DNA from: Mucisphaera calidilacus
Lineage (GTDB): Bacteria > Planctomycetota > Phycisphaerae > Phycisphaerales > Phycisphaeraceae
DNA: 32,000 bases
Direction: 5' to 3'
Assembly: GCF_007748075.1 (NCBI RefSeq)
Contig: NZ_CP036280.1
Location: 1,140,001 to 1,172,000, forward strand
A model generated the notes under the pieces. The model was given only the letters and a program-made list of their open reading frames with translations. It was not told the DNA's origin and did no database searches. Numbering within the stretch: position 1 is the stretch's first letter; each line of letters starts with the position of its first letter. The translations under genes and the position numbers were made by a program. Shown here one piece after another: positions 1,552 through 29,541 of the stretch.

Positions 1552-1556
1552 CCTCA

Positions 1557-5845: not shown

Positions 5846-5866
5846 GCAAAATCCCCCGTTGCGCTC

Positions 5867-5914: not shown

Positions 5915-5941
5915 TCGGTCTTTGCGACCAAAGGGCCAACC

Positions 5942-6498: not shown

Positions 6499-6509
6499 AC
6501 CGCACGTCA

Positions 6510-16354: not shown

Positions 16355-16383
16355 TTGTGAACATCCGCGAAAAACGGATAATA
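16355..16383 (+). promoter_or_regulatory. Candidate sigma70 promoter for the HTH-hsd operon
   Basis: TTGTGA (16355-16360), 17-nt spacer, ATAATA (16378-16383), in the 99-nt gap after the ImmA gene. Based on pattern match only. Confidence 0.3.
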
Positions 16384-16438
16384 ATCGATGCGTAAGCGGG
16401 GTTAGGCGATCAGATCACCCCGGGGCGTTGGAGTAGCC

Positions 16439-16633
16439 ATGGCGGCGAAACGCGATGAGATCATGACGATGGACGAACTGGCGGAGTATCTGAAGATCTC
16501 CAAGTCCACGCTCTACAAGCTGGCGGTGGAGAACAAGCTGCCAGGAACAAAGATCGGCAAACGCTGGCGATTCCACAAGGACGCCATTGACGATTGGATC
16601 AAGCGGCAACCTGAGAGAGGCGACGCCCAGTGA
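16439..16633 (+). CDS. Excisionase-family (HTH_17, MerR-superfamily) DNA-binding protein
   Basis: MTMDELAEYLKISKSTLYKLAVENKLPGTKIGKRWRFHKDAIDDWI is the classic HTH_17 signature. Its stop codon overlaps the hsdM GTG start (GTGA). Confidence 0.8.
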   Translation: MAAKRDEIMTMDELAEYLKISKSTLYKLAVENKLPGTKIGKRWRFHKDAIDDWIKRQPERGDAQ

Positions 16634-18642
16634 ACAACTTCGGAGAAAAAGTCAGCTTCATCTGGACGGTCGCGGACCTGCTGCGCGGACCCTATCGGCC
16701 CAACCAGTACAAGGACGTGATGCTCCCCTTGACCGTCCTGCGCCGCCTGGACTGCGTGCTTGAGCCGACCAAGGACGAAGTCCTCGACCGCATGAAGAAG
16801 CTCGAAGGCGGCAAGGTCAAGAACGTCGAGCCGATCCTCTGCCGCGTCACCGGCGTGCCGTTCTACAACACCAGCCGCTACACGTTCGAGAAGCTCAAGG
16901 GCGACCCGAACAACATCGCCGCCAACCTCACCAACTACATCAAGGGCTTCTCCACCCGCGCCCGCGAGATCATCGAACGCTTCGGATTCGAGGAACACAT
17001 CGCCCGGCTGGACAAGACTGATCGGCTCTACCTGGTGATCCAGCGCTTCTGCCAGATCGACCTTCACCCGGACCGCGTCTCGAACATCGAGATGGGCTAC
17101 ATCTTCGAGGAGCTGATCCGGCGGTTCAACGAGGCATCGAACGAGGAGGCTGGCGATCACTTCACGCCGCGCGAGGTCATCCGCCTCATGGTCAACCTGC
17201 TGTTCGACCCTGATGACACCGTGCTGACCACCAAGGGCATCGTCAAGACGCTCTACGACCCGGCCTGCGGCACCGGCGGCATGCTCTCGGTCGCTGAAGA
17301 CTACGTCCGCGAGCTCAACCCCGACGCCCAGCTTGAAGTCTTCGGCCAGGACTACAACGCCCAGGCCAACGCCATCTGCGGTTCGGACATGATGATCAAG
17401 GGCCAGAACATCGATCACATCGCCTTCGGCGACAGCTTCACCGACGACCGGTTCCCCCGACACAAGTTCGGCTACATGCTCGCCAATCCGCCGTTCGGCG
17501 TGGAGTGGAAGCCCGAGCAAGACGCCATCAAACGCGAGCATGAGAACCAGGGCTTCGGCGGGCGTTTCGGTGCGGGCCTGCCGCGTATCAACGATGGCTC
17601 GCTGCTGTTCCTTCAGCACATGATCAGCAAGATGAAGGACCCGGCCGACGGCGGCACGCGCCTGGGCATCGTCTTCAACGGCTCGCCGTTGTTTACTGGC
17701 GCGGCTGGCTCGGGCGAAAGCGAAATCCGCCGCTGGATCATCGAGAACGACTGGCTCGAAGCCATCGTCGCCTTACCCGACCAGCTTTTCTACAACACCG
17801 GCATCTACACCTACCTGTGGATCGTCACCAATCGCAAGGAGCCCGGCCGCCAGGGCAAGATTCAACTGGTCGACGGCACCAGCTTCTTCAAGAAGATGCG
17901 CAAGAGCCTCGGCAACAAGCGCAACAAGGTCTGCGACGACCAGCGCGACGACATCACCCGCCTCTACGGTCAACTGTCAGATGGCGACCACGTCCGCATC
18001 TTCGACAACACCGACTTCGGCTACCAGCGCATCACCGTCGAACGTCCGCTCCGGCTGAACTTCGCCGTGGATGATGAACGCCTCGCTCGTGTTCAGGAGG
18101 CCGGCCCATTCACCAAGCTCGCCACCAGCCGCAAACGCAAGGACACCAAGGCGGCCGAAGCCGAGATCGAAGCCGGCCGCCAGCAGCAGCAGGCCATCCT
18201 CGCCGCCCTCAACACGCTCGCCAGTGAGGGTGTCGTCCAGGACCGCGAAGCCTTCTCCAGTCAGCTAAAAGCCGCCTTCAGGAAGGCCGGTGTTAAAGTG
18301 CCGACGCCGCTGTTCAAGGCCATCCTCATGGCCCTGGCTGAACGCGACGAGACCGCCGAACTCTGCACCGACGCCAAGGGCAACCCGGAACCCGATCCCG
18401 AGCTGCGCGACTACGAGAACGTCCCGCTCAAGGAGAACATCGACGCCTACATGCAGCGGGAGGTCCTCCCGCACGTGCCCGATGCCTGGGTCGACGAATC
18501 CAAAACCAAAGTCGGCTACGAGATCAACTTCAACCGCTACTTCTACCAGTACGCCCCGCCCCGGCCGCTCGACGAGATCGAGACCGACCTCAAGTGCATC
18601 GAAGCCGAGATCGCCGGCATGCTCGCGGAGGTGACCGAATGA
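16630..18642 (+). CDS. hsdM: Type I restriction-modification system methyltransferase subunit M
   Basis: HsdM N-terminal FIWTVADLLRGPY. AdoMet motif YDPACGTGGML. Catalytic motif LANPPFG. 670 aa. Confidence 0.95.
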   Translation: MNNFGEKVSFIWTVADLLRGPYRPNQYKDVMLPLTVLRRLDCVLEPTKDEVLDRMKKLEGGKVKNVEPILCRVTGVPFYNTSRYTFEKLKGDPNNIAANLTNYIKGFSTRAREIIERFGFEEHIARLDKTDRLYLVIQRFCQIDLHPDRVSNIEMGYIFEELIRRFNEASNEEAGDHFTPREVIRLMVNLLFDPDDTVLTTKGIVKTLYDPACGTGGMLSVAEDYVRELNPDAQLEVFGQDYNAQANAICGSDMMIKGQNIDHIAFGDSFTDDRFPRHKFGYMLANPPFGVEWKPEQDAIKREHENQGFGGRFGAGLPRINDGSLLFLQHMISKMKDPADGGTRLGIVFNGSPLFTGAAGSGESEIRRWIIENDWLEAIVALPDQLFYNTGIYTYLWIVTNRKEPGRQGKIQLVDGTSFFKKMRKSLGNKRNKVCDDQRDDITRLYGQLSDGDHVRIFDNTDFGYQRITVERPLRLNFAVDDERLARVQEAGPFTKLATSRKRKDTKAAEAEIEAGRQQQQAILAALNTLASEGVVQDREAFSSQLKAAFRKAGVKVPTPLFKAILMALAERDETAELCTDAKGNPEPDPELRDYENVPLKENIDAYMQREVLPHVPDAWVDESKTKVGYEINFNRYFYQYAPPRPLDEIETDLKCIEAEIAGMLAEVTE

Positions 18643-19754
18643 GCGAAGACACCGGCCCCATCCGCCCCGAAGGTGAGATCGTCCTGTATCAGCCTGCACA
18701 GGGCAACGAGCCGGTCCGCGTGCTGCTCGAAGGCGAGACCGTCTGGCTCACTCAGCGCCTGATCGCCGAGCTCTACGGCGTGTCCGTGAAGACGGTAAAT
18801 GAGCACCTGAAAAACATTTACGAGGAAGGCGAGCTGGACGCGGAGGCAACTATCCGGAAATACCGGATAGTTCAGATCGAGGGCGATAGGCAGGTCTCTC
18901 GCCTCCTCGACCACTACAACCTCGACTGCATCCTCGCCGTCGGCTACCGCACCCGTTCTCCTGTGGGAACCGCCTTCCGCCAGTGGGCTACCGCCCGTTT
19001 GCGCGAGTACCTCGTCAAGGGGTTCACGCTCAACGACGAACGCCTCAAGGGCACCGACAGCGTCACCGACTACTTCGACGAACTGCTCGCCCGCATCCGC
19101 GACATTCGCGCCAGCGAAGCTCGCGTGTACCAGCGCATCCGCGAGATCTTCGCCCTGGCTGTCGACTACCGCGAAGGCGAGCAGGAGACCCAGAGGTTCT
19201 TCGCCACGATGCAGAACAAGATGCACTACGCGGCCACGGGCCACACCGCCGCCGAGATCATCCGCCGCCGCGCCGACAGTGCCTTGCCCAATATGGGCCT
19301 GACCGCCTGGAAAGGCGACCGCGTCATCAAGCGTGACGTGGGCACCGCCAAGAACTACCTCGACGCCCAGGAGATCGACACCCTCAACCGCATCACCGTC
19401 ATGTTCCTGGACCAGGCTGAGTTCCGCGCCGAGCGCCGCCAGGACATCCACATGCACGATTGGCAGGCCTTCCTCGACAAGTTCCTGCGCGACACCGAAT
19501 TGCCCGTCCTCACCGACGCCGGGTCGGTCAGTCACGACGACGCCCTCGACTGGGCGCACGAGCAATACGACGCCTTCGCAGATCGCCGACGACTTGATGC
19601 CGAAAAGCAGGCCGAGTCCCACTATGTCGAGGATCTGCGTACTTCGGCCAATGCGCTCGAACATGAGCGAAAGAAGAAGACCCCCAAGAAGAAGCAGTCC
19701 AAGGGCAAGAAGAAAGGCCGTAAACGTGGCCCGGGCAAAGGGGGCGAGTCATGA
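18639..19754 (+). CDS. rhuM: RhuM family protein (virulence-protein RhuM-like), nested in the hsd operon
   Basis: IVLYQ...VRVLLEGETVWLTQRLIAELYGVSVKTVNEHLKNIYEEGEL...TIRKYRIVQIEG.R.V.R.L.HYNLD.ILAVGYR matches the RhuM family. ATGA overlap with the hsdM stop codon. Lys-rich C-terminal tail. Confidence 0.85.
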   Translation: MSEDTGPIRPEGEIVLYQPAQGNEPVRVLLEGETVWLTQRLIAELYGVSVKTVNEHLKNIYEEGELDAEATIRKYRIVQIEGDRQVSRLLDHYNLDCILAVGYRTRSPVGTAFRQWATARLREYLVKGFTLNDERLKGTDSVTDYFDELLARIRDIRASEARVYQRIREIFALAVDYREGEQETQRFFATMQNKMHYAATGHTAAEIIRRRADSALPNMGLTAWKGDRVIKRDVGTAKNYLDAQEIDTLNRITVMFLDQAEFRAERRQDIHMHDWQAFLDKFLRDTELPVLTDAGSVSHDDALDWAHEQYDAFADRRRLDAEKQAESHYVEDLRTSANALEHERKKKTPKKKQSKGKKKGRKRGPGKGGES

Positions 19755-19813
19755 CTTGGCCCAACATCTATGCAGGCACACGAGCAATCTCCACGGCGAA
19801 TAGGCCGTCGGGG

Positions 19814-19912
19814 ATGAACTGCGCCGATGGCGTTCCCGAGGGCTGGTGCGTTCGCCGCCTCAAGCGGGTCGGAGTAGAGGTCGCCGACATTTTTCAGGAG
19901 GTGGCCAAATGA
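19814..19912 (+). pseudogene. Remnant of an hsdS 5' end (32 codons)
   Basis: The translation MNCADGVPEGWCVRRLKRVGVEVADIFQEVAK carries the HsdS N-terminal signature (PEGW.V.RL). It parallels VPEHWEVRRLKY in the intact hsdS at 20793. Its TGA overlaps the ATG of the membrane-protein gene (ATGA). Confidence 0.45.
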
Positions 19913-20454
19913 GCCGTGACTTCTACGAGCTCTGCTATGACCAGTACAAGCAGGAGATGGCCGAAGCTGACGGCCTGTATCAGAAGGCTGCCGTCATGCT
20001 CGGCGTGATCCCGCTCCTTGGAGCCGTGATGGTCGCCATCGGTCGGGTGGACATCGTCAACCTGTGCTCCGTGCGTGTAGACGTATTCATCTTCTACTTC
20101 GCCTTCCTCGTTGCCACCGCAGCCTTGGTTGTCAGCGTCGTCTTTCTGTTCAAGTGTGTGTGCCCTCAGAAGTACAAGACACTTGCCAGCATGGATATGT
20201 GGCAGAAATGGCGAGACGACTACCAGCGTTGGCTTGATGAGCAAGACGACGAGTGGAAGGAGACCACATCTTTGGACGACGCATTGTTCCCGTGTATATG
20301 CACGAGACTTGCCGAGGCCCAGGCGATCAATGCCAAGATCAATGAGAATCGCAGGAAGGCATTCAAGCGATCCGTACAACTGGCTGCAATAGCACTGGCT
20401 GCCATCGCCATGCAGGCCCTATTCGGGCTGCTGATGACACTACAGGGAGTCTAA
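19909..20454 (+). CDS. Membrane protein with three predicted TM helices (possible abortive-infection-type effector)
   Basis: AGGAGG RBS. Hydrophobic segments AAVMLGVIPLLGAVMVAIG, VFIFYFAFLVATAALVVSVVFLF and VQLAAIALAAIAMQALFGLLMTL. By eye, G+C looks lower than in the flanking DNA. Confidence 0.65.
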   Translation: MSRDFYELCYDQYKQEMAEADGLYQKAAVMLGVIPLLGAVMVAIGRVDIVNLCSVRVDVFIFYFAFLVATAALVVSVVFLFKCVCPQKYKTLASMDMWQKWRDDYQRWLDEQDDEWKETTSLDDALFPCICTRLAEAQAINAKINENRRKAFKRSVQLAAIALAAIAMQALFGLLMTLQGV

Positions 20455-20490
20455 AGCATCTCTAACGGAAAGAAGAAGTGCGTCCCCAAG

Positions 20491-20718
20491 CCTCCACCGC
20501 CGCCGCCAGACAATCAGGATCGAACCGCCGGCGATGACCCGCCCGTCATCAAAACCGGCAGTCAAGATAATCCCAGCAAAGGACAGAAGCATGGCTAAAG
20601 ACAGCGGTAATCAATCGAGTAGCGGACAGACCCAAGGGCCTCCACCGCCTCCACCTAACACAGAGTCAACAAGGGACGGTGGACAAGGTCAATCGCCTCC
20701 ACCCCCGCCGCCAGACAA
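20491..20718 (+). repeat. Three dispersed copies of a roughly 23-nt poly-proline-coding repeat
   Basis: CCTCCACCGCCGCCGCCAGACAA (20491-20513), CCTCCACCGCCTCCACCTAACA (20639-20660), CCTCCACCCCCGCCGCCAGACAA (20696-20718). Copy 1 is in frame 1; copies 2 and 3 are in frame 2. Confidence 0.6.
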
Positions 20719-20761
20719 CGTATCGGTAACCAGGGATGCCACTGGCGTTGAACATAGGTGA
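20591..20761 (+). CDS. Doubtful small proline-rich ORF (56 aa)
   Basis: MAKDSGNQSSSGQTQGPPPPPPNTES...SPPPPPPDNVS. Low-complexity sequence that may be debris of a longer frameshifted ORF. Confidence 0.25.
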   Translation: MAKDSGNQSSSGQTQGPPPPPPNTESTRDGGQGQSPPPPPPDNVSVTRDATGVEHR

Positions 20762-20792
20762 GCAACATGCTCTGAATTGGGATTCAAATGCC

Positions 20793-22136
20793 ATGGGCAA
20801 TGTGACCACTGTGCAAGCTGGCAAACGAGCGACCTACCCGGCGTATAAGCCGTCGGGTACGCCGTGGTTGGGCGACGTGCCTGAGCATTGGGAAGTGCGC
20901 CGCTTGAAGTACAGCGCCGACTTGATCAACCAGAAGGTTGATGGGGCCGAAGCGGATCTCCCGTACATGGGGCTGGAGCACATTGAATCGTGGACTGGCA
21001 AGCGCTTGGGACAGAATGGCGATGCATCGAGCGATGGCCAGGCGAACCTCTTTCGGCGCGGCGACGTGCTGTTCGGCAAGCTTCGACCGTACCTGGCCAA
21101 GGCTTACGCGGCCGACTCCGAGGGCATCTGCACCGGCGAGCTTCTCGTACTACGGCCTAAAGCCGTCGATCAGAAGTTCTTGCTGGACTACGTGCTCAAT
21201 CCAGACTTCGTCACTATCGTCGATTCATCGACGTACGGCGCGAAGATGCCTCGCGCGAACTGGGACTTCATCGGCAACCTACCCACGCTGATTCCCCCAC
21301 TCGACGAGCAGAAGGCCATCGCGGAGTTTCTGGATCGGGAGACGGCGCGGATCGATGCGTTGATCGAGAAGAAGCGGCGGCAGATCGCGTTGCTCCAGGA
21401 GAAACGCTCCGCCCTGATCAGCCACGCCGTCACCAAGGGCCTCGACCCCAACGCCCCCATGAAAGACTCCGGCATCGAGTGGCTGGGACAGATTCCGGCA
21501 CACTGGGCAGAGCGTCCGCTCAAACGAGTCGCGTTAATCGAGAATTCCGGTGCCTACGGTGAAGAGGAAGGCGAATTGGCCAACACCGTTAGGGTCTGCA
21601 CGACTGCTCATATCACGGCTCGTGGCGAGTTTCTGACTGAGGAGATGCCATTGCGGTCGTTCAGCCAGGCCGATTTGGACCGCTACCGAGGCCGTGTCGG
21701 CGACATTTTTGTGGTGAAAAGCAGTGGATCCAACACCAATATCATCAGCGGCAAACTCGCTCTGGTAAAGAATGAAGAGCCTACGGTCGTCTTCACAAAC
21801 TTTCTTATGCGGGTCAGGGCAGTACCAAGAAGCGCCGTGCCGGCGTTCCTGGCGTACCTGCTATCGTCTCACTTCACGCGTGAACGTATTCAGCGAATGG
21901 TCGCGACAACCACCTATCCCAACATTGATGTTGAAGAGTATGCGGGTGATCAACTGCCGCTTCCGCCGGTAGATGAGCAAGAGCGCATTGCAGCATTGCT
22001 TGATGTTGAGGTTGGGAAGATAGACTTAATACATCACCACATCGACAGGAGTATCGCTGCATTGCGCGAGTATCGAGCGTCTCTCATCTCGGCTGCCGTA
22101 ACAGGCAAGATCGACGTTCGGGGGGAGGTCGGATGA
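20793..22136 (+). CDS. hsdS: Type I R-M specificity subunit S
   Basis: Two TRD-like halves, each followed by a conserved helical region (LDEQKAIAEFLDRETARIDALIEKKRRQIALLQEKRSALISHAVTKG, then VDEQERIAALLD...SIAALREYRASLISAAVTGKIDVR). Start at ATG 20793 or 20736. Confidence 0.9.
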   Translation: MGNVTTVQAGKRATYPAYKPSGTPWLGDVPEHWEVRRLKYSADLINQKVDGAEADLPYMGLEHIESWTGKRLGQNGDASSDGQANLFRRGDVLFGKLRPYLAKAYAADSEGICTGELLVLRPKAVDQKFLLDYVLNPDFVTIVDSSTYGAKMPRANWDFIGNLPTLIPPLDEQKAIAEFLDRETARIDALIEKKRRQIALLQEKRSALISHAVTKGLDPNAPMKDSGIEWLGQIPAHWAERPLKRVALIENSGAYGEEEGELANTVRVCTTAHITARGEFLTEEMPLRSFSQADLDRYRGRVGDIFVVKSSGSNTNIISGKLALVKNEEPTVVFTNFLMRVRAVPRSAVPAFLAYLLSSHFTRERIQRMVATTTYPNIDVEEYAGDQLPLPPVDEQERIAALLDVEVGKIDLIHHHIDRSIAALREYRASLISAAVTGKIDVRGEVG

Positions 22137-22756
22137 GCGTTGCAGGCCGAGACATCTTCACCGTCGGACACTCCACACACGAGTGGGAGACGTTCCTCGG
22201 CCTGCTGAAGCAGCACGGCATCACTGCCATCGCTGACGTTCGGTCGCAGCCGTTCAGTCGCCTGCCGGAATACAACCGCGACGCGCTGGCGGCTGGCCTG
22301 AAGCGCGAGGGCATCCAGTATGTCCCGCTGGGCCGCGAACTCGGGGCCAGGCGCGACGAGCCGGAATGCTACGTCGATGGCCAGGCGGTGTATGAGCGGG
22401 TGGCGGAACTGCCGCTGTTCCACGAGGGGATCGAGCGGCTGCTCAAGGGCGCGGAGCGGTTCACCATCGCGCTGATGTGCGCGGAGAAGGAGCCGCTGGA
22501 TTGTCACCGCACGGTGCTGGTGTGCCGCCGCCTGCGGCCCCACGGCCTGCATATCCGCCACATCCTGGCTGACGGGACGCTGGAGGAGCACGCGGACGCC
22601 GAGAAGCGGTTGATGAAGATGATGGGCATTGCCCCTGACCTCTTCCAGCAGGACGTCAAGGAAGCGGACCTGATCGAACGAGCATACGAAGAACGCGGCA
22701 AGCAGATCGCTTACCGCATGGACACAGAAGGAGCCTCGAATGAACCAGCCGAGTAG
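22133..22756 (+). CDS. DUF488 family protein (paralog 1)
   Basis: IFTVGHSTHEWETFLGLLKQHGITAIADVRSQPFSR...ALMCAEKEPLDCHR matches the DUF488 (YeaO-like) consensus. ATGA overlap with the hsdS stop codon. Confidence 0.85.
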   Translation: MSVAGRDIFTVGHSTHEWETFLGLLKQHGITAIADVRSQPFSRLPEYNRDALAAGLKREGIQYVPLGRELGARRDEPECYVDGQAVYERVAELPLFHEGIERLLKGAERFTIALMCAEKEPLDCHRTVLVCRRLRPHGLHIRHILADGTLEEHADAEKRLMKMMGIAPDLFQQDVKEADLIERAYEERGKQIAYRMDTEGASNEPAE

Positions 22757-23213
22757 CAGCACGGACGCCAAGCCCATCACGATCTTCACGATCGGCTTCG
22801 CTCGCAAGTCGGCGAAGGAGTTCTTCGAGAAGCTCCAGAAGGCGGGCGTGAAGCGGCTGATCGACGTCCGCTTGAACAACGTCTCACAGTTGGCGGGATT
22901 CACGAAGAAGAAGGACCTGGAGTACTTCCTGCGTGTGATCGCGGACATCGACTACGTCCACTTCGATGACCTCGCCCCGACGAAGGACATCCTCGACAGC
23001 TTCAAGAAGCAGAAGGAGATGGACTGGGCCGACTACGAACGGCGGTTCAACGCGCTGATGGAGCAGCGCTCGCCGGAGACGCACCACCTGCCGAATGAAT
23101 TTGACCATGCGTGCCTGCTGTGCAGCGAGGCGACGCCGGAGAACTGCCATCGACGACTTGTTGCCGAGCACCTGCGCCGCAGATGGGGCAACGTGGAGAT
23201 CAAGCATCTATGA
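22740..23213 (+). CDS. DUF488 family protein (paralog 2, divergent)
   Basis: IFTIGFARKSAKEFFEKLQKAGVKRLIDVRLNNVSQ...CLLCSEATPENCHRRLVAEHL. Overlaps paralog 1 by 17 nt. Confidence 0.8.
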   Translation: MNQPSSSTDAKPITIFTIGFARKSAKEFFEKLQKAGVKRLIDVRLNNVSQLAGFTKKKDLEYFLRVIADIDYVHFDDLAPTKDILDSFKKQKEMDWADYERRFNALMEQRSPETHHLPNEFDHACLLCSEATPENCHRRLVAEHLRRRWGNVEIKHL

Positions 23214-23224
23214 CGGGGTGAACT

Positions 23225-23866
23225 ATGACGCAGATGATCTGCATGGCAAATTCGATTCGTGAAGGTGACCGATGCGTCGCGGGCATTGAGGTCGGCACTG
23301 GCCGTTGGATTCGACCCGTGCCTCCGGCAGGCGGGGGCATTCCCACGCGTCACGTCAACTTCGGCGGCCATTTGCTCGAACCGCTCGACATCGTTGAGTT
23401 GAACGTTCAGCCTCCGCAGATGACGACACGGTATCAGTGCGAAAACTGCGTGATGCCCGCCTACGACTGGCGGATCGTCGGAAAAGCGGAGCCGATCCAT
23501 CTCTTGCCGTGCTGTGAACGCACGACGCCGATTCTGCACACCGATACGGATCGCGTGGCCCCGGCCCTGCTTGAGCAGCTTCCGCCCGCACAGTGGAGAT
23601 CGCTTCAGCTGGTCCGTGCCAACCCGGTCACGTTCGGCCAAGACTACTGGAACCAGCGTCGTTGGCGGGCCAGTTTTCACGACGAAGCCGGGAACCATTA
23701 CTCGCTCAAGGTCACTGACCCACTGGCGTGCGATCGGCTCGCGCGGGGTGAGGAGATCGGCCAGGATTGCATATTGACGATCAGCCTGATCGAGCCGTGG
23801 ACGCACAACGCCGAAGAGAAGCCGCCCACGTGCTACAAGCTCGTGGCTGCGGTCGTTGAGCTGTGA
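23225..23866 (+). CDS. Hypothetical protein, possibly of the 'dual OB domain' type
   Basis: The N-terminus MICMANSIREGDRCVAGIEVGTGRWIRPV resembles, from memory, proteins annotated as dual OB domain-containing. No enzymatic motif seen. It lies 11 nt after DUF488 paralog 2 and 19 nt before hsdR. Confidence 0.55.
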   Translation: MTQMICMANSIREGDRCVAGIEVGTGRWIRPVPPAGGGIPTRHVNFGGHLLEPLDIVELNVQPPQMTTRYQCENCVMPAYDWRIVGKAEPIHLLPCCERTTPILHTDTDRVAPALLEQLPPAQWRSLQLVRANPVTFGQDYWNQRRWRASFHDEAGNHYSLKVTDPLACDRLARGEEIGQDCILTISLIEPWTHNAEEKPPTCYKLVAAVVEL

Positions 23867-23885
23867 TGAAGGACGGAGAATCAAT

Positions 23886-26800
23886 ATGCCCGTAAACCAC
23901 AAAGAGATCGCCTTCGAAGCCGCCATCGAGCACCACCTGACGACGGCGGGCGGGTACGTCAAGGGTGACCGCGACGGGTTTGATTCGCACCGGGCGATCT
24001 TCCCGGCGGATGTGCTCGCGTTCATCAAGGCGACGCAGCCGGATGAGTGGGCGTACCTGGAGGGTATCCAGAAGGCCAAGGCCGAGGAGACGCTGCTGGA
24101 CGATCTGTGCCGGGCGCTGGATTCGGAGCACGAGGGCTGCCTTTCGGTACTGCGGCACGGGTTCAAGTGCTTCGGCAAGCTGTTTCACGTGGCCTACTTC
24201 GCCCCGGCCAGCGGGATGAACCCGGAGACGAAGAAGCGGTACGAGGCCAACCGGCTGACGATCACGCGGCAATTGAAGTACTCGCCCAAGCACAACAACA
24301 CGCTGGACGTGACGTTGGCGATCAACGGCATCCCGGTGGCGACGGCGGAACTGAAGAACCCGATGACCGCCCAGACCTGGCGGCACGCGGTGACGCAGTA
24401 CAAGAACGACCGCGATCCGGGCGACCTGATCTTCCAGTTCAAGCATCGGGCGCTGGTGCATTTCGCCGTGGACACCGACGAGGTCTACATGACCACGCGG
24501 CTGTCGGGCAGCAAGACGTACTTCCTGCCGTTCAACAAGGGCTGCGGTGGCGGCGGCGGGAACCCGGAGAACACGTCCGGGGGCGGCGGATACAAGACGG
24601 CGTACCTGTGGGAGGAGGTGCTGGAGCGGCACAGCTTCCTGGACATCCTGGCGCGGTTCATCCACCTACAGATCGAGGAGAAAAAGCTCGGCGACAAGAA
24701 GGTCAAGAAGCAGACGATGATCTTCCCCCGCTACCACCAGCTCGACTGCGTGCGGGAGATGGTGGCCGACGCACGCGAGCGTGGTGTTGGGAACAACTAC
24801 CTCGTGCAGCATTCGGCGGGCAGCGGCAAGAGCAACTCCATCGCCTGGCTGGCGCACCGGCTGAGCAGCTTGTACGACGAGCAGGATGAGAAGGTCTTCG
24901 ACTCGGTGATCGTCGTGACCGATCGCGTTGTGCTGGATCAGCAGCTTCAGTACACGATCTACCAGTTCGAGCACAAGCAAGGCGTCGTGGAGAAGATCGA
25001 GATCAACTCGACGCAGCTGGCCGAGGCGCTGGGTGCCGGTGTGCCGATCATCATCACAACCCTGCAGAAGTTCCCGTTCGTGACCGAGAAGATCGGTGAC
25101 CTGCCGAAGAAGCGGTATGCGGTCATCGTCGATGAGGCCCACAGCTCCCAGGGCGGTGAGACAGCCACCGAACTCAAGGGCGTGCTGGCGGGCGCAACGA
25201 TCAAGGAAGAAGCCAAGGCGAAGGCCGAAGCGGAAGGGCTGCCCGACTACGAGGAAGAGATTCTCAAGGCGATGGCCAAGCGCGGCAAACAGCCGAACAT
25301 GAGCTTCTTCGCGTTCACGGCCACGCCCAAGTACAAGACGCTGGAAGTTTTCGGCCAGCTGGGGCCGGATGGCAAGCCCCGGCCGTTCCATCTCTACAGC
25401 ATGCGGCAAGCCATCGACGAAGGCTTCATCCTTGACGTGCTGCAGAACTACACGACGTATAAGACCTACTACCGGCTGATCAAGTCCATCGAGGACGATC
25501 CGAAGGTGGACAAGCGCAAGGCGGCGCGGGCACTGGCCCGGTTCATGAGCCTGCATCCGCACAACATCGCGCAGAAGACCGAGGTGATGGTCGAGCACTT
25601 CCGCCATTTCACGCTGCACAAGAACGGCGGCAAAGCCAAGGCGATGGTGGTCACGTCGAGCCGCCTGCACGCGGTCAAGTACAAGCAGGCGTTCGACAAG
25701 TACATCAAAGAGAAGGGCTACACCGAGATCAAAACGCTGGTGGCCTTCTCCGGCACGGTGATCGACCCGGATGCGCCAGGTGTTGAGTACACCGAGTCGG
25801 CGATGAACATCGACGCCCAGGGCAAGCACATCGGCCAGAAGGAGTTGCCCGAGCGGTTCGCCACCGAGGAATACCAAGTGCTGCTGGTGGCCGAGAAGTA
25901 CCAGACAGGCTTCGATCAACCGCTGTTGCACACGATGTACGTCGACAAGCGATTGGCGGGCATCCAGGCGGTGCAGACGCTGTCGCGCCTGAACCGGACG
26001 CATCCGGGCAAGGAGGACACGTTCGTCCTGGACTTCGTGAACGAGCCGGATGAGATTCTCGCCGCCTTCCAGCCGTACTACGAGCAGACGCTGGTCGGAG
26101 AGCAGGCTGACCCGAAGCAGCTGTACGAGTTGCAGGCGAAGCTCGACGCCCAGCAGGTCTACCACAAGACCGAGGTCGATGAGTTCTGCCGGGTGTTTTA
26201 CAAGCCCAAGCGGAACCAAACGCCGACCGACCACGCCCGGATGAATGCGTGCATCGACCCCGCCGTCGGGCGGTTCACCGAGTTTGATGAAGAGGAGCGG
26301 GAGGAGTTTCGCAAGACGCTGACGGCGTTTCGGAACTTGTATTCGTTCCTGTCGCAGGTCATCCCGTTCCAGGATACCGACTTGGAGAAGCTGTATTCGT
26401 ACATCCGGTTCCTGCTCACGAAGCTCCCCAAAGGCGACAGCGGGCCGGTGTACCACTTCGATGACGACGTGTCGCTCAAGTACTACCGCCTGCAGAAGAT
26501 CGGCGAAGGCTCGATTGATCTTGAGGCAGGCAAGACGGAGCCGGTCGATGGGCCGACATCGGTGGGCACGAAAGCGGCGCACCCTGACGAAATTGAGCTG
26601 TCGCAGTTGATCGACATCCTGAACGAGCGGTTCGGCACGGAGTTCAAGCCTGGCGATCAGCTGTTTTTTGAGTCGATCCGGGAAGATGCCGTGGCGGACG
26701 ATGCTCTGCGGCAGGCGGCGAAGGCGAACACGATTGAGAACTTTGGCTACGTCTTCCGCAAGGCACTGGAAGGCCTGTTCATCGACCGCATGGACCAGAA

Positions 26801-26945
26801 CGAAGAGATCACCGCCCGCTACATGAACGAAGAGCGGTTCCGCGAGGCGGTCAGCCAGCATCTTCTCAAGGATGTGTACGACCACATCCGAGATGAGGCG
26901 GTGACTGCAGGGAGTATCTCGGAAGCACCCAACCAAGAAGGTTAA
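23886..26945 (+). CDS. hsdR: Type I restriction endonuclease subunit R
   Basis: N-terminal nuclease region (LDVTLAINGIPVATAELKN). Walker A HSAGSGKS. DEAH box VIVDEAHSSQ. Motif VI-like QTLSRLNR. About 1019 aa from ATG 23886 behind GGAG. Confidence 0.95.
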   Translation: MPVNHKEIAFEAAIEHHLTTAGGYVKGDRDGFDSHRAIFPADVLAFIKATQPDEWAYLEGIQKAKAEETLLDDLCRALDSEHEGCLSVLRHGFKCFGKLFHVAYFAPASGMNPETKKRYEANRLTITRQLKYSPKHNNTLDVTLAINGIPVATAELKNPMTAQTWRHAVTQYKNDRDPGDLIFQFKHRALVHFAVDTDEVYMTTRLSGSKTYFLPFNKGCGGGGGNPENTSGGGGYKTAYLWEEVLERHSFLDILARFIHLQIEEKKLGDKKVKKQTMIFPRYHQLDCVREMVADARERGVGNNYLVQHSAGSGKSNSIAWLAHRLSSLYDEQDEKVFDSVIVVTDRVVLDQQLQYTIYQFEHKQGVVEKIEINSTQLAEALGAGVPIIITTLQKFPFVTEKIGDLPKKRYAVIVDEAHSSQGGETATELKGVLAGATIKEEAKAKAEAEGLPDYEEEILKAMAKRGKQPNMSFFAFTATPKYKTLEVFGQLGPDGKPRPFHLYSMRQAIDEGFILDVLQNYTTYKTYYRLIKSIEDDPKVDKRKAARALARFMSLHPHNIAQKTEVMVEHFRHFTLHKNGGKAKAMVVTSSRLHAVKYKQAFDKYIKEKGYTEIKTLVAFSGTVIDPDAPGVEYTESAMNIDAQGKHIGQKELPERFATEEYQVLLVAEKYQTGFDQPLLHTMYVDKRLAGIQAVQTLSRLNRTHPGKEDTFVLDFVNEPDEILAAFQPYYEQTLVGEQADPKQLYELQAKLDAQQVYHKTEVDEFCRVFYKPKRNQTPTDHARMNACIDPAVGRFTEFDEEEREEFRKTLTAFRNLYSFLSQVIPFQDTDLEKLYSYIRFLLTKLPKGDSGPVYHFDDDVSLKYYRLQKIGEGSIDLEAGKTEPVDGPTSVGTKAAHPDEIELSQLIDILNERFGTEFKPGDQLFFESIREDAVADDALRQAAKANTIENFGYVFRKALEGLFIDRMDQNEEITARYMNEERFREAVSQHLLKDVYDHIRDEAVTAGSISEAPNQEG

Positions 26946-27002: not shown

Positions 27003-27437
27003 TTACGGCGGCAAGGCTACACGGTGTGCAATGACCGCATCGCGATACCGCAGCTTGAGGAGTCGCCAAGTTGTTCGTTGGTCAACCCATTCGGTATTCC
27101 GAGTGATCGGCCGCACATCCCGCTCGGTGATCGTGTCATTGCCGGTGTGGACCAGCGGTAGATTCAGCAGTTCCTCCTGAATGTCCGGCGCGAGGTGCAG
27201 CAGATTCATGATCTGCGTCATCCGTGGCTGCGTCACGCGGGTGAGGCGGGCGAGATCAGACATGCTGGCGACTTCGCCATTAACGAGCATTTTATCGAAG
27301 CGGATCGCTAGGGCCATCAATTTCGAGACGCGCGGGATGCGCCCCGTCGGCGGCGACGGTTCGGGCGGCGGACCGGTCTTGATGACCTTGTGTCTTGTCT
27401 TGCGGGCGAAGTGGATCTCGTGCGTGACGGTTGTCAT
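27003..27437 (-). CDS. ParB/KorB-like HTH protein that accompanies the serine recombinase
   Basis: LARLTRVTQPRMTQIMNLLHLAPDIQEELLNLP is a motif I recognise from genes adjacent to DUF2924-recombinase pairs. ATGA overlap with the recombinase stop codon. Confidence 0.7.
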   Translation of the reverse strand: MTTVTHEIHFARKTRHKVIKTGPPPEPSPPTGRIPRVSKLMALAIRFDKMLVNGEVASMSDLARLTRVTQPRMTQIMNLLHLAPDIQEELLNLPLVHTGNDTITERDVRPITRNTEWVDQRTTWRLLKLRYRDAVIAHRVALPP

Positions 27438-29005
27438 GCGGCTTGCTCGATTCGACGGTCGATGAGCGACCGGATGCTGGTCGGGTGGAAGGTGACCGAC
27501 ACGGTACCGGCCTGCCCGTCGTAGTCCACTGTGGCAATCAGCAGCTTCAGAAGCCGCGCCTGCTCGCGGGGGATCAGGTTCGCCCACAACTCGTCGAACT
27601 CGCCGAAGGCGGCTTGGGCATCGACGCGCGTGATGACTTCGCTTTCGATGTCACTGACCCGGGCTTTGAGGTGCGGCTCTTGCCGGTTTCCGTCGGCGAG
27701 GCGGGTGTGCAGATCGGCGACGCGGGAGGTGGTCTGGTCATCCGTACGGCTGCTCGCGGCCAAACGTTTCAGTTCGCGGCTGTCACGGTCCAGTTGCCGC
27801 CGCAGGTCGTCAAGATCGCGTTGTGCGGCCACCCGTTCGCCCTGGATCGCCGCGTGGGCCTCTGTGAGTACCTGGGCAAGCAACGCTTCGTCTTCGCCCA
27901 AGCGGCGAACCTCGTCCACAACCAAGGCCTCGATCTCCTGAGCTGGAAGCGTTTGGGACGTGCAGGCATCACGACCGTTCTTGATCTCATGCGTGCACCG
28001 GTAGTATCGGTAGAGGTGGCGGCCCTTGCCACGATGGAACGTATGCGTCATCGCCGTGTCGCACCCCTTGCACCTCAGCAGGCCACGCAGCAGTGCACCG
28101 TACTTATTACGCACTTCCGCACCGCCGGTCCGTCCGTTTTCCTTGAGCTGGTGCTGGACCTTGTCGAACAGTTCCTGCTCGATGATGGGCTCGTGCTCGC
28201 CCGGGTACAGATCGCCCTTGTAGGTCATCTGCCCGGTATAGATCGGGTTGGTCAGCAGGGCGTGAAGCATGGCCTTGTCGAACCGACGCCCGCCGACTTG
28301 CTTGCCCTTCTTCGTGGTGCGTCGCTTATTGGGCCAGCTGCGTCGTGCTAGCTCCTTGACCACCGGGAGCAGCGACGCCTCACGAAGGTACATGCGGAAG
28401 ATCTCACGAACTCGGGCTGATTCCTTCGCGTTGATGACCAGGCGAGGGCTTGGCCCCGAGCGATCGACGTCGTAGCCGAGCACCGGAACGCCGCCGGTCC
28501 ACTTGCCCTTGCGGGCCTGCGCCGCCAGCTTGTCGCGGATGCGTTCGCCGATGATCTCCCGCTCGAACTGGGCGAAGCTCAGCAGGATGTTGAGCGTCAA
28601 CCTGCCCATCGAATGCGTCGTGTTGAAGTGCTGCGTCACCGACACGAACGAGACCCCTTGGCGCTCGAACGTCTCCATGATGCGTGCGAAGTCCATCAGC
28701 GATCGGCTCAGGCGGTCGACCTTATAGACCACCACGCAGTCGACCTTGCCGGCGTCGATGTCACGTAGCAGACGCTCAAGCGCGGGCCGTTCCATGCTTC
28801 CGCCGGAGTACCCGCCGTCGTCGTAGCGATCGGGCAGCGCCGTCCACCCCTCGGCCTTCTGGCTGGCAATGAACGACTCGGCCGCTTCGCGCTGGGCATC
28901 GAGCGCGTTGAACTCCTGGTCGAGGCCTTCCTCGCTCGACTTGCGGGTGTAGATCGCACACCGCACCGTTGTCTTGACGGGTGTCTTGTTCTTCGCTCGA
29001 CTCAT
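27434..29005 (-). CDS. Large serine recombinase (integrase)
   Basis: Resolvase catalytic domain (AIYTRKSS...VVYKVDRLSRS), recombinase domain, zinc ribbon (CKGCDTAM...YYRCTH) and coiled-coil tail. Start at ATG 29005, overlapping the DUF2924 stop codon (ATGA). Confidence 0.95.
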   Translation of the reverse strand: MSRAKNKTPVKTTVRCAIYTRKSSEEGLDQEFNALDAQREAAESFIASQKAEGWTALPDRYDDGGYSGGSMERPALERLLRDIDAGKVDCVVVYKVDRLSRSLMDFARIMETFERQGVSFVSVTQHFNTTHSMGRLTLNILLSFAQFEREIIGERIRDKLAAQARKGKWTGGVPVLGYDVDRSGPSPRLVINAKESARVREIFRMYLREASLLPVVKELARRSWPNKRRTTKKGKQVGGRRFDKAMLHALLTNPIYTGQMTYKGDLYPGEHEPIIEQELFDKVQHQLKENGRTGGAEVRNKYGALLRGLLRCKGCDTAMTHTFHRGKGRHLYRYYRCTHEIKNGRDACTSQTLPAQEIEALVVDEVRRLGEDEALLAQVLTEAHAAIQGERVAAQRDLDDLRRQLDRDSRELKRLAASSRTDDQTTSRVADLHTRLADGNRQEPHLKARVSDIESEVITRVDAQAAFGEFDELWANLIPREQARLLKLLIATVDYDGQAGTVSVTFHPTSIRSLIDRRIEQAA

Positions 29006-29541
29006 CGCGTGGTTCCCAGCCTGAAGAAGCGAAACCCGTTCATGTGGCTGCCGGTGACTCTCTTCGCGACGGCCGTCAGCGTCCGGAAGCGTTCCCCATC
29101 GCACTCGAAGCCTTGACCATCCTTGAGGACGACGGCCCGGATGGTACGGCCCTTGTATTCACGGACCAGCGCCGTGCCCGGCGGCGGGATCCGCGGGTCG
29201 GTGGGTTTGGCGGGACCGCGTGACATCGGGCGTGTGACTGTCACCGTCTCGCCGGTCTGTGGCGGGCAGATCATGGTCTTTGGTGCCATTACCCTTACCT
29301 CGGCGTCGTTCGCCAGTTCGAACGCCCGCTCCCGGATACGGCGGGCACGCTCTGACAGGTCGCCCTCGGCGTTGGCCTGGATGCGCCAGGCGTTCTTGCG
29401 TATCAGGTAGGCCCGGTGGCGGGTGCGGCAGGGCTGGCCGTGCAGATCCCTGTAGAGGTTGGCCAGCTCGCCGGTCGTCATGTCGTCCAGTGCGGCGAGC
29501 TGCGTTGTCGTGTCTTGCATGCGTGTGGTTCCTTTCGTCAT
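29002..29541 (-). CDS. DUF2924 domain protein
   Basis: ELANLYRDLHGQPCRTRHRAYLIRKNAWRIQANAEGDLSERARRIRE... and the C-terminal REYKGRTIRAVVLKDGQGFECDGERFRTLTAVAKRVTGSHMNGFRFF fit DUF2924. Alternative start at 29520. Confidence 0.8.
   Translation of the reverse strand: MTKGTTRMQDTTTQLAALDDMTTGELANLYRDLHGQPCRTRHRAYLIRKNAWRIQANAEGDLSERARRIRERAFELANDAEVRVMAPKTMICPPQTGETVTVTRPMSRGPAKPTDPRIPPPGTALVREYKGRTIRAVVLKDGQGFECDGERFRTLTAVAKRVTGSHMNGFRFFRLGTTR

Follow-up and report, generated by a model that had tools for sequence, protein, structure and literature searches.

A DUF488-DUF488-DuOB cassette between hsdS and hsdR of a Mucisphaera calidilacus Type I restriction-modification operon: a plausible autonomous conflict module

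Described systems and the catalogue entry PDC-M45

In the prr locus of E. coli, the anticodon nuclease PrrC is encoded within the Type I restriction-modification (R-M) system EcoprrI, in the order hsdM-hsdS-prrC-hsdR. PrrC, which combines ABC-ATPase and nuclease in one protein, is kept silent by physical contact with the R-M complex. Two other known proteins bear on the present case: DarT, which ADP-ribosylates single-stranded DNA and is paired with a Macro antitoxin, and Fic, an AMPylase.

At the level of gene content, the closest described system is the PADLOC candidate PDC-M45, nominated from its embedding in BREX, DISARM or Type I R-M loci (Payne, Hughes, Fineran & Jackson, bioRxiv 10.1101/2024.01.29.577857). 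In the accessible parts of that preprint, PDC-M45 is a bioinformatic candidate whose phenotype and mechanism are unreported, 68 cassettes are counted in a RefSeq-derived table, and Table S8 gives the gene order as three anonymous families; the same parts describe PrrC as almost exclusively embedded. Dedicated Pfam models exist for DuOB and DUF488-N3a, and no experiment on any of the three cassette proteins was found in the literature searched.

We describe here a cassette found in a stretch of 32,000 nucleotides of the Mucisphaera calidilacus chromosome (hereafter the window). A PADLOC search, proposed in a preliminary description of this DNA, showed that all three proteins match PDC-M45 (A, B and C models). 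The same three families form one cassette in both cases, with no structural difference, so that the window cassette is a member of PDC-M45, and embedding inside an R-M operon, the very signal behind the nomination, is the situation that the window shows. What we report below on the insertion hotspot, on the swap of DuOB alleles and on variant forms of the cassette goes beyond the description of PDC-M45 in the parts of the preprint available to us.

The cassette and its carrier operon

The cassette lies between hsdS (20736..22136, forward strand; 466 aa; Pfam Methylase_S; PADLOC Specificity_I, E 1e-119) and hsdR (23886..26945, forward strand; Pfam HSDR_N, SWI2_SNF2, ResIII and T1R_D3-like; PADLOC REase_I). 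It consists of three genes on the same strand: DUF488-long (22133..22756; 207 aa; Pfam DUF488, E 1.7e-23; PDC-M45B, E 1.5e-77), DUF488-short, of the N3a ("active") subclade (22740..23213; 157 aa; Pfam DUF488, E 5.3e-24, and DUF488-N3a, E 5.5e-12; PDC-M45C, E 2.6e-64), and DuOB ("Dual OB-containing domain"; 23225..23866; 213 aa; PDC-M45A, E 9e-29). The tight packing claimed at the outset is exactly what we read in the sequence: the TGA of hsdS (22134-22136) overlaps the ATG of DUF488-long at 22133 in an ATGA, a stretch of 17 nt (22740-22756) is common to both DUF488 genes, 11 nt (23214-23224) precede the ATG of DuOB, and 19 nt (23867-23885) with a GGAG-like ribosome-binding site precede that of hsdR. 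We place the hsdR start at 23886, with its conserved N-terminus MPVNHKEI; the automatic ORF call had reached a TTG at 23856. The spacing is repeated in 96%-identical relatives, and GC at third codon positions (0.83, 0.87 and 0.74 for DUF488-long, DUF488-short and DuOB, respectively, in a window of 62% GC) is typical of genuine genes here. The protein assignments of the preliminary description hold as well: the first two ORFs are DUF488 paralogues whose GHS/GF, DVR and C.E.....CHR motifs are kept across 64 orthologous cassettes, and the "dual OB" guess for the third agrees with its Pfam DuOB match (E 8.7e-42 over residues 3-210).

The operon begins with hsdM (16630..18642, forward strand; Pfam HsdM_N and N6_Mtase; PADLOC MTase_I, E 5.6e-299), the Type I methyltransferase gene, by a promoter-like site at 16355-16385. 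The hsdM-hsdS interval is a second cargo slot, holding a RhuM-family gene (18639..19754, forward strand; Pfam Virulence_RhuM, E 1e-106; PADLOC PDC-S05, E 4e-143) that occupies the same position in about 12 sister operons. Also in this interval is a predicted membrane protein gene (19909..20454, forward strand) with weak matches only (PycTM, E 6e-5; Tetraspanin, E 0.004) and a relative in one sister locus (L104). Downstream of hsdR, on the reverse strand, a large serine recombinase (27434-29005; Pfam Resolvase, Recombinase and Zn_ribbon_recom) is paired with a DUF2924 gene (29002-29541; Pfam DUF2924), and a host PFOR-like gene (30281-31999) lies beyond this pair (27434..29541). The pair is likely the integration module and the end of a mobile element carrying the hsd locus; the same combination adjoins the cassette-bearing hsd locus L081.

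A cargo hotspot, and the cassette outside it

We compared the window with 67 sister operons that share 72-90% identity with it over the N-terminal 400 aa of HsdR. The hsdS-hsdR junction is empty in 24 of them and otherwise holds ImmA/IrrE+DUF4411 (14 operons), Fic (8), DarT+Macro (6-7), AAA+subtilase (3) or PIN_4; the DUF488-DuOB cassette was found at this junction in none of the 67. The hsdS-hsdR junction is thus a cargo hotspot, and the analogy with prr that had been drawn for this slot is apt. The DarTG, Fic, ImmA/IrrE+DUF4411 and AAA+subtilase insertions sit in the identical position and are, like the cassette, small, self-contained and exchangeable. However, the biochemistry of these insertions is unrelated, and DarTG and Fic have a clear toxin/antitoxin logic that is not evident for DUF488/DuOB.

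Does the analogy extend from the slot to the function? The preliminary description had suggested a PrrC-like effector or sensor guarded by the R-M system, or an R-M accessory. In its guard form, HsdMSR would hold the cassette latent until a phage anti-restriction protein attacking the R-M complex released it. The cassette does occupy the slot of prrC, is translationally coupled to hsdS and is expressed together with the operon, and within the R-M lineage of the window the association is kept at HsdR identities between 96% and about 65% (L087-L090, L081, L001, L002 and L020). However, unlike PrrC, it consists of three unrelated proteins with no resemblance to PrrC, shows no sign of control by Hsd subunits, and is found mostly outside R-M loci, in contrast to the almost exclusive embedding of PrrC in the available parts of Payne et al. 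None of 80 close relatives of the window's hsdR carries the cassette, and the slot accepts unrelated cargos. We therefore consider guarding by HsdMSR very unlikely, and the idea of a dedicated R-M accessory is likewise unsupported.

The distribution of DuOB argues in the same direction. Among 80 species genomes encoding DuOB, the DUF488 pair adjoins it in about 70, and in about 70 of the 80 loci the genes are colinear, either DUF488-long, DUF488-short, DuOB or with DuOB first, across at least 10 phyla: the three families strictly co-occur. By contrast, hsdR is nearby in only 5 of the 80 loci (with the order hsdS, cassette, hsdR in 3 of these 5), most cassettes being solo, and because of this scarcity the cassette cannot be regarded as R-M-dependent. 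Three different hsdR families are linked with it (that of the window, L001, L002 and L020; that of L022; that of L045), one cassette lies inside a BREX-like locus (L054), and a variant seems to be all the cargo that a 4.2-kb plasmid carries (described below). The immediate flanks are heterogeneous (182 Pfam families among 150 neighbours), and a minority only of these neighbours match defence models. The triplet is thus autonomous and independent of the R-M system. A neighbourhood census had been suggested early on; numerically, contexts unrelated to R-M predominate in it, which refutes R-M dependence but leaves a role in conflict unrefuted, and we regard the cassette as a plausible defence or conflict module.

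DuOB, a putative DNA binder with a replaceable N-terminal domain

Structure searches had also been proposed in the preliminary description. The AF2 model of DuOB is confident (pLDDT 94) and has two beta-barrels, that is, tandem OB folds. Its best Foldseek matches are HIN-200, POT1/TEBP/Teb1 and SSB, with low TM-scores (0.3-0.4) and 7-10% identity. HIN-200 proteins (AIM2, IFI16, p202), as well as POT1, TEBP-alpha and Teb1, use tandem OB barrels to grip DNA, and HIN domains are innate-immune DNA sensors, which offers a functional parallel; the likeness is nevertheless a generic tandem-OB similarity, without evidence of common descent. DuOB is acidic (pI 5.8) and has invariant residues of its own (A8, C17, G20, R30, P31, E73, N74, S126 and K205). 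It is naturally fused to RecQ helicases and to DUF559/MTES_1575 nuclease domains of restriction-endonuclease fold, with WD40 and kinase domains as further partners, and occurs as two tandem genes in some Chloroflexota. On its modelled fold, fold matches and fusions, DuOB looks like a DNA binder.

Comparison of the window with L001/L002 reveals a replacement of DuOB between operons otherwise about 87% identical. Identities of 84-92% for HsdM, HsdR and the two DUF488 proteins contrast with 46% for DuOB and 37% for HsdS; homology at the DNA level is lost at 23231-23235 and regained at 23592-23674. The N-terminal OB (about residues 1-125) is the most diverged part, with 33-44% identity for residues 1-125 versus 60% for residues 126-213. 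In these sequence comparisons DuOB appears to behave as a specificity subunit would.

These data bear on a second reading, in which the cassette serves housekeeping or stress DNA repair, an OB binder and end-cleaning phosphoesterases tidying DNA termini or adducts, and its occasional linkage to R-M aiding survival of self-restriction. The RecQ fusions fit this idea, as does YeaO of E. coli, a DUF488 protein encoded as a singleton on the chromosome. Cassettes of Pirellulales/Thermoguttaceae (Planctomycetota) and of Nostocales lie in a conserved gene order beside housekeeping genes (Tex, YjeF_N, PBP, alpha-2-macroglobulin), which looks more like stable vertical inheritance than like a typical defence island. 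Moreover, no recognisable toxin or classical effector (nuclease, NADase, pore-former) was found in the cassette, and this counts against a conflict role. On the other hand, a repair function sits badly with a rare and patchy distribution (141 of 185,579 species representatives in a pattern scan), with its presence on small plasmids and on an element that bears a recombinase, with embedding in R-M and BREX loci, with an allele replacement typical of arms-race specificity modules, and with the WD40, kinase and REase-fold fusion partners of DuOB, which are of a kind usual in conflict systems. We consider repair unlikely.

The DUF488 pair, plasmid variants and a possible mechanism

DUF488-long has canonical TVGHS, DVRS.P.SR and C.E.....CHR motifs and a helical C-terminal extension conserved in 64 orthologues. 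DUF488-short is the most conserved protein of the cassette, with 41 invariant columns that include C125, C128, S129, E130, C136, H137 and R138. The DUF488 fold (AF2 model of DUF488-short, pLDDT 86) is a five-stranded alpha/beta in which every invariant polar residue lies at the C-terminal end of a strand, and on this model DUF488 looks like an enzyme. The only fold matches, to diphthine-synthase-like/tetrapyrrole methylases and PTP/dual-specificity phosphatases, fall below significance (E of 0.012 or more, TM of 0.47 or less).

DUF488 had been said to have no assigned biochemical function. This is correct as far as experimental activities in the searched literature are concerned, but not for computational predictions: Burroughs and Aravind reportedly joined DUF488 and DUF4326, in 2023, with phosphatase/methylase-like families in the rhodanese/PTP superfamily, and the "RapZ-C-DUF488-DUF4326 clade" of this Rhodanese / PTP-type phosphatase superfamily is the nearest described group. 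As in that superfamily, DUF488 has a Rossmannoid alpha/beta architecture, an invariant Cys at a strand end and a His-Arg opening the next helix; it differs by a C-X9-R spacing instead of the canonical C-X5-R, and by having one more invariant Glu and another Cys. Neither sequence nor structure comparison gave a significant score against a characterised member of the superfamily.

A variant of the cassette occurs on an IncP plasmid, and relatives are found on mobilizable plasmids from Klebsiella, Citrobacter, Acinetobacter and Moraxella; in a 4167-bp Klebsiella plasmid the variant is the only sizeable ORF set (ORFs of at least 100 aa). In the plasmid variants mSLOG+DUF4326 replace DUF488-long, DUF488-short and DuOB being present in all variant forms seen. 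Since relatives travel on such plasmids and the copy in the window is part of an integrative element, one may imagine an establishment factor, a single-stranded-DNA-binding OB protein and its enzymes shielding incoming DNA from the defences of the recipient. We find this most improbable: the cassette sits within restriction and BREX operons and shares their transcription, many copies lie on chromosomes away from mobile elements, and neither 50,697 phage records nor a pattern scan of IMG/VR yielded it.

The plasmid variants also suggest nucleotide or ADP-ribose chemistry in place of DNA-end chemistry, DUF488 processing a small-molecule nucleotide derivative or an ADP-ribosyl adduct on DNA (of DarT type, for example) and DuOB binding the modified single-stranded DNA. 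Such a system could serve signalling, or it could undo a modification that a phage or a toxin has inflicted. SLOG domains are nucleotide-binding or nucleotide-processing, the predicted substrates of DUF4326 are ribose-linked terminal phosphates of ADP-ribose derivatives, and viral proteins fuse DUF4326 to Macro/NADAR/SLOG (Iyer et al. 2022); DarT+Macro occupy the same slot in sister operons. However, SLOG, Macro, ART and TIR domains are all missing from the window cassette, the fusion partners of DuOB are DNA enzymes, the activity of DUF4326 is itself a prediction, and its homology to DUF488 is given a probability of 4% by hhalign. This proposal seems to us quite unlikely.

The explanation that we favour, with a confidence that does not exceed an even chance, is that the three genes together make up a single conflict module, autonomous and horizontally mobile, neither a subunit nor a ward of the restriction enzyme, and most likely directed against phages or plasmids. 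The cassette would ride in the hsdS-hsdR hotspot, co-transcribed with a Type I R-M operon that would in turn be cargo of a prophage-like integrated element. DuOB would bind an end, a single-stranded region or otherwise unusual DNA of the invader, and would set specificity through its exchangeable N-terminal OB. We infer that it brings in, or switches on, the two DUF488 paralogues as a complex; these may be Rossmannoid enzymes of rhodanese/PTP-phosphatase type, whose Cys-x-Glu-x5-Cys-His-Arg site would carry out phosphate-centred chemistry, that is, hydrolysis or transfer at the sugar-phosphate of a DNA terminus, a nucleotide or an ADP-ribose-type adduct. The outcome of this putative defence would be that the target DNA is no longer ligated, circularised, replicated or repaired.

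The hsd operon and its catalogued cassette

The Type I restriction-modification (R-M) operon of the window, whose hsdM (16630-18642), hsdS (20736-22136) and hsdR (ATG at 23886 to 26945) genes all lie on the + strand and were identified with Pfam, carries three further + strand genes between hsdS and hsdR. These encode a long DUF488 protein (22133-22756; Pfam DUF488 E 1.7e-23, PADLOC PDC-M45B E 1.5e-77), a short DUF488 protein (22740-23213; Pfam DUF488 E 5.3e-24 plus DUF488-N3a, PADLOC PDC-M45C E 2.6e-64) and a DuOB protein (23225-23866; Pfam DuOB E 8.7e-42, PADLOC PDC-M45A E 9.1e-29). Read from the sequence, the stop of hsdS overlaps the start of the long DUF488 gene in an ATGA, the two DUF488 genes overlap by 17 nt, and gaps of 11 nt and 19 nt precede DuOB and hsdR, respectively. 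The ORF coordinates and this reading agree in every detail with the layout given in the preliminary description, whose guess that the third protein resembles 'dual OB' proteins was also right, the Pfam model being the 'Dual OB-containing domain', matched over the full length (PF22557; 144 bits, cut-off 27, residues 3-210 of 213). The third-codon-position GC of the three ORFs, 0.74-0.87, is what real genes should show in a sequence of 62% GC. A promoter and terminator scan, performing at chance level, gave a promoter-like site upstream of hsdM and no convincing + strand terminator between hsdM and hsdR, and transcription of hsdM-hsdR as one operon is thus weakly indicated.

The hsdM-hsdS junction (18639-20761) is a second filled cargo slot. 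It contains a RhuM-family gene (18639-19754, +; Pfam, and PADLOC candidate PDC-S05), a small predicted membrane-protein gene (19909-20454, +; weak PycTM match) and a short Pro-rich ORF that is doubtful as a gene (third-codon-position GC 0.47). RhuM occupies this position in about 12 sister operons among the 80 hsdR relatives kept, and the corresponding slot of L001, a cassette-bearing operon close to that of the window, holds a YhcG-type PDDEXK protein (PDC-S02).

The cassette is a member of the already catalogued candidate system PDC-M45 and of the Pfam DuOB-DUF488-N3 association: contiguous window genes of one strand match all three models, PDC-M45A, B and C, and their place between hsdS and hsdR is of the kind (embedding in BREX, DISARM or Type I R-M) from which the candidate was nominated. 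The preprint of Payne et al. presents 145 phage defence candidates, chosen because their genes lie inside loci of BREX, DISARM or Type I R-M systems, and placed in PADLOC; entry CAS_00153 of its Supplementary Table S8 is the three-family cassette, which has a count of 68 and is marked 'Assign as candidate PDC-M45' (bioRxiv 10.1101/2024.01.29.577857). The domain combination had already been noticed by comparative genomics, because dedicated Pfam models exist for DuOB (PF22557), DUF488-N3a (PF22751, 'active DUF488-N3 subclade') and mSLOG (PF22565). No NCBIfam model matches any of the three proteins, only two PHROGs families of unknown function are matched (by the short DUF488), and the cassette domains are not mentioned in the eLife 2020 paper on conflict systems. 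Our literature search found no report of a phenotype or activity for DUF488, DuOB or PDC-M45, nor any biochemical paper, in agreement with the earlier remark that DUF488 has no assigned biochemical function; of the E. coli DUF488 protein YeaO nothing is known, according to a preprint on CRISPR adaptation.

Distribution of the cassette and cargo at the hsdS-hsdR junction

When one GTDB genome per species was scanned with a pattern, 141 genomes proved to encode a DuOB relative, and the best 80 loci were kept; the pattern came from a closer DuOB subset, the full 64-sequence DuOB alignment being too diverse for a locus scan. Among these best 80 of 141, a DUF488 relative adjoins DuOB in 74-75 loci, the order long DUF488, short DUF488, DuOB is found in about 58 (split ORFs included) and the order DuOB, long, short in 11, and four intact loci (L028, L031, L054, L061) have a two-gene form with the short DUF488 and DuOB only. 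In two Chloroflexota (L070 9127-10669, L076 9118-10666) two tandem DuOB genes precede the DUF488 pair. The phyla with DuOB include Planctomycetota, Cyanobacteriota, Chloroflexota, Actinomycetota, Bacteroidota, Zixibacteria, Nitrospinota, Acidobacteriota and Armatimonadota, among others. The surroundings are varied: 150 immediate neighbours match 182 different Pfam families, the largest clusters (PLD-like protein, YjeF_N, Tex, PBP, alpha-2-macroglobulin) are each limited to one lineage, and a minority match defence models (OLD/GajA-like ATPases, SNF2 helicases, mad3, nSTAND3). A conserved fourth gene beside the cassette was looked for and none was found, only lineage-specific synteny. The three genes form an independent unit. 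Taken singly, DuOB gave 4,068 clusters at 50% identity (E <= 1e-3, profile run against 1.84 billion representative proteins), nearly all of them stand-alone proteins of 205-240 aa, and the DUF488 family is very large, with at least 8,000 matches at E <= 0.001 in a search with the short paralogue.

The preliminary description compared the cassette with PrrC, the E. coli anticodon nuclease encoded between hsdS and hsdR, and suggested that it could be an effector or sensor guarded by the R-M system, or an R-M accessory. Its position in the window is indeed that of prrC, and the order hsdS, cassette, hsdR recurs in L001 (Zixibacteria), L002 (Planctomycetaceae) and L020 (Aeoliella), with HsdM and HsdR 63-88% identical to those of the window, as well as in the metagenomic relatives nearest to the window DuOB (96% and 79% identity), among them L081, the 79%-identity relative, and the loci L087-L090. 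Two other loci, L022 and L045, have an HsdR unrelated to that of the window (about 24% identity), and in L054, from a Pelotomaculum MAG, the two-gene form (9487-10666) lies within a BREX-like locus, in the order DUF6079, N6_N4 methylase, cassette, SNF2 helicase, then PglZ. An extra gene separates DuOB from hsdR in L020 (10804-11919; no Pfam match) and in L022 (4072-5145; DUF3644). The association with R-M or BREX arose at least four times independently, once for each of three HsdR families and once for the BREX-like locus, far above the expectation for a random gene. It is nevertheless facultative: hsdR is nearby in only 5 of the best 80 of 141 loci, most cassettes occur without any R-M system, and the next DuOB relatives of the window (66% and 56% identity) are solo, among katG/fur/hemE or glycosidase/thioredoxin genes.

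The converse scan, in which metagenome contigs were searched with the N-terminal 400 aa of the window HsdR, leads to the same view from the other side. Eighty loci of 72-90% identity (L094-L173) were kept, and neither DUF488 nor DuOB was found in any of the 80. The 67 of them that contain both hsdS and hsdR are the basis of the junction counts: the two genes abut in 24 and are separated by an insert in 43. By Pfam, the inserts are Peptidase_M78 (ImmA/IrrE) with DUF4411 in 14 loci, Fic in 8, DarT with Macro (DarTG) in 6-7, an AAA ATPase with a subtilase in 3, a PIN_4 protein in 2, and others in the remainder. This Type I lineage has an insertion hotspot between hsdS and hsdR, and the inserts are alternative modules; the cassette is therefore one rare alternative among many exchangeable toxin/defence cargos. 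Such a slot supports a conflict role by association and argues against a dedicated partnership of the cassette with this restriction enzyme.

A PrrC-like role under R-M guard is thus disfavoured by both censuses, that of the DuOB loci and that of the hsdR relatives. It is disfavoured also by the proteins themselves: PrrC combines an ABC-type ATPase with a C-terminal anticodon nuclease, an architecture absent from the cassette proteins, for which Pfam and PADLOC gave no PrrC, ATPase or nuclease match. Neither the near-exclusive tie to R-M nor the PrrC architecture that the analogy called for was found; what survives of the original idea is a conflict role by association, through hotspot and embedding, and not the guard.

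The hsd locus itself is carried by a prophage-like integrated element, whose flanks occupy 1-16339 and 27434-29541. Upstream of the operon are a ParB_N and N6_N4 methylase fusion (1557-3065), a Prim-Pol/DUF3987 primase (3293-5845), genes for a helicase, RusA, DUF669, an AAA_24 protein and a sigma-like factor (within 1-16339) and an ImmA/IrrE peptidase (15347-16339); downstream of hsdR, at the right end of the element, are a large serine recombinase (27434-29005) and a DUF2924 gene (29002-29541), beyond which a PFOR-like host gene starts at 30281. The recombinase/DUF2924 pair is found again in L081, where it lies, with a methylase, next to the cassette-bearing hsd locus. This bears on the rival view that the three genes form a housekeeping repair module, for which one may cite the stable synteny in some lineages and the lack of any toxin domain in the cassette, but which fits poorly with its patchiness, mobility and embedding. 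An anti-defence role on behalf of mobile elements is, we think, the least likely of the four rivals considered here.

DuOB replacement and the DUF488 pair

The AF2 model of DuOB (pLDDT 94, pTM 0.91) has two beta-barrel halves. PDB sequence searches with single cassette proteins and with profiles matched no chain; Foldseek against the PDB with the DuOB model returned HIN-200 domains (p202, AIM2, IFI16), Teb1, TEBP-alpha, POT1 and SSBs. With HIN-200 the best E is 9.7e-4, at TM 0.33-0.40 and 7-10% identity, which is a generic tandem-OB resemblance. There are also rare fusions (P0272, P0311, P0345, P0305, P0279, P0284, P0318; L048 9995-11689), in which DuOB is joined to RecQ helicases (two cases), to DUF559/MTES_1575 restriction-endonuclease-fold domains (two cases, one also with a Ser/Thr kinase) and, in Calothrix and other cyanobacteria, to WD40 propellers. 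Such partners suggest that the ligand of DuOB is DNA.

Compared with L001 and L002, the window operon is strongly conserved in HsdM (85-88% identity), HsdR (84-87%), long DUF488 (86-90%) and short DUF488 (90-92%), against 46% for DuOB and 37% for HsdS. DNA homology of about 85% spans the stretch between the end of hsdS and the opening DuOB codons, is lost at 23231-23235 for the N-terminal two-thirds of DuOB, and is back at 23592-23674, within the C-terminal OB, from where it continues through hsdR; residues 1-125 of DuOB are 33-44% identical and residues 126-213 about 60%. The DuOB allele of L001/L002 is similar to the type of Aeoliella (L020). Of the cassette components, DuOB evolves fastest (mean identity over 2,016 locus pairs 36%, against 46% for the long and 57% for the short DUF488). 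Faster evolution as the sole cause was considered and rejected, the four pairs of window or L081 with L001 or L002 being gross outliers, and in view of the DNA breakpoints. The DuOB gene or domain has been replaced within a conserved operon, like the neighbouring hsdS. This replacement parallels the variability of hsdS. DuOB thus behaves like a specificity subunit, and we take this as the best available evidence that it, above all its N-terminal OB, determines what the module recognises; the tandem DuOB loci of the two Chloroflexota can also be cited here.

DuOB relatives are present on eight plasmids and were found in none of the phage records, a pattern scan of IMG/VR being negative as well. 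On the mobilizable 4167 bp Klebsiella plasmid CP052514.1 (L085 2370-4028), DuOB is followed by a short DUF488 (N3a) and a protein with mSLOG and DUF4326, and this variant cassette accounts for all ORFs of at least 100 aa; the Citrobacter IncP plasmid pLNU-11 (L086 5992-7659) has the order DuOB, DUF488, DUF4326, and an Acinetobacter plasmid (L084) a decayed copy. Because the second enzyme varies (long DUF488, mSLOG-DUF4326, or absent), DuOB and the N3a-type DUF488 form the constant core. The mSLOG-DUF4326 variants are also what suggests a further rival, a role centred on nucleotides or ADP-ribose.

Both DUF488 paralogues score 84-86 bits against the Pfam cut-off of 22.2 (PF04343), and the short one 46.5 bits against N3a (PF22751, cut-off 27). 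The motifs T-[IV]-G, D-[VI]-R and C-x-E-x5-C-H-R are invariant in 32 and 64 orthologues, and the last is kept by both paralogues across 64 cassettes; the long paralogue has the canonical TiGHS and DVRS.P.sr, the short one TiGF and D.RLNN.SQLAGF. The two DUF488 subunits kept side by side are distinct and probably both functional, which suggests a hetero-oligomer. The model of the short DUF488 (pLDDT 86) is a five-stranded alpha/beta Rossmannoid, its strands (13-19, 39-42, 71-74, 124-128, 152-156) alternating with helices, and it is three-layered, as expected in the rhodanese/PTP-phosphatase superfamily. The invariant residues are found where strands end on their C-terminal side: T17, G19, F20; D42, R44; N47, S49, Q50; Y72, H74; C125, C128, S129, E130; C136, H137, R138. 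Of these, C128 ends strand 124-128 and H137-R138 open helix 137-149. In rhodaneses and PTPs a catalytic Cys closes a strand and is followed by a phosphate-binding loop whose final Arg starts a helix (C-X5-R); the loop of the short DUF488 has nine residues in place of five (C-X9-R), with E130 and C136 as extra invariants. Foldseek gave nothing significant for this model (best E 0.012), the weak list being mostly tetrapyrrole/diphthine-synthase-type methylase domains and PTP/dual-specificity phosphatases, and hhalign between the DUF488 alignment and the DUF4326 protein of the plasmid paired nothing but the ...CH[RG]... helix, at a probability of 4%, which is not significant. For DUF4326, Iyer et al. 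(2022) predicted the processing of ribose-linked terminal phosphates. Burroughs and Aravind (2023) reportedly united RapZ-C, DUF488 and DUF4326 in one clade, are said to have placed diphthine-synthase-like methylases in the same superfamily, and reportedly predicted DNA-end-processing activities in virus-host conflict systems. Our fold matches agree with placing DUF488 in the rhodanese/PTP-phosphatase superfamily without proving it.

A possible role and its significance

Four points appear to go beyond the prior descriptions that we found: the multi-cargo hotspot at the hsdS-hsdR junction of the window's R-M lineage, the DuOB allele swap, the constant core of DuOB and N3a DUF488 with a replaceable second enzyme, and the DuOB fusions to DNA enzymes. 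They are incremental, computational observations. We consider the chances evenly balanced that the cassette is an autonomous conflict or defence module in which DuOB recognises nucleic acid and the DUF488 pair does phosphate chemistry. In this account, the most economical one, a module of three proteins would travel horizontally and, in the window, would either have inserted into the cargo slot of an R-M operon of Type I, itself on a prophage-like element, or have come down together with that slot by inheritance; its DuOB would recognise nucleic acid, most likely DNA, and its DUF488 pair may use cysteine for phosphate chemistry, acting on DNA termini or else on groups of nucleotide/ADP-ribose type. 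That this chemistry is specifically DNA-end processing seems to us rather doubtful. It is unlikely that DuOB and DUF488 together represent a new kind of immune effector, one that processes the DNA termini or sugar-phosphate adducts of an invader chemically instead of cutting. Target choice would then be set by the swappable N-terminal OB, analogous to the target-recognition domains of HsdS, and the R-M-embedded copy might act on double-strand ends made by HsdR, making the breaks irreparable for the phage.

If a DNA-terminus effector were the true answer, this would be the first biochemical function for DUF488, which is very widespread and is represented in E. coli by YeaO. The window locus is a clean natural test bed, with an intact Type I R-M operon and the cassette in place, sister operons in which the same slot is vacant or occupied by DarTG or Fic, and near-isogenic operons that differ essentially only in hsdS and DuOB. 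Should the cassette prove to be a defence system, a candidate nominated through guilt by embedding would be validated and phosphatase-superfamily chemistry revealed in immunity; should it not, the lesson would be that a gene embedded in an R-M locus need not be a defence gene. The biochemistry of DUF488 is a worthwhile question, for which the window locus is a good experimental entry point.
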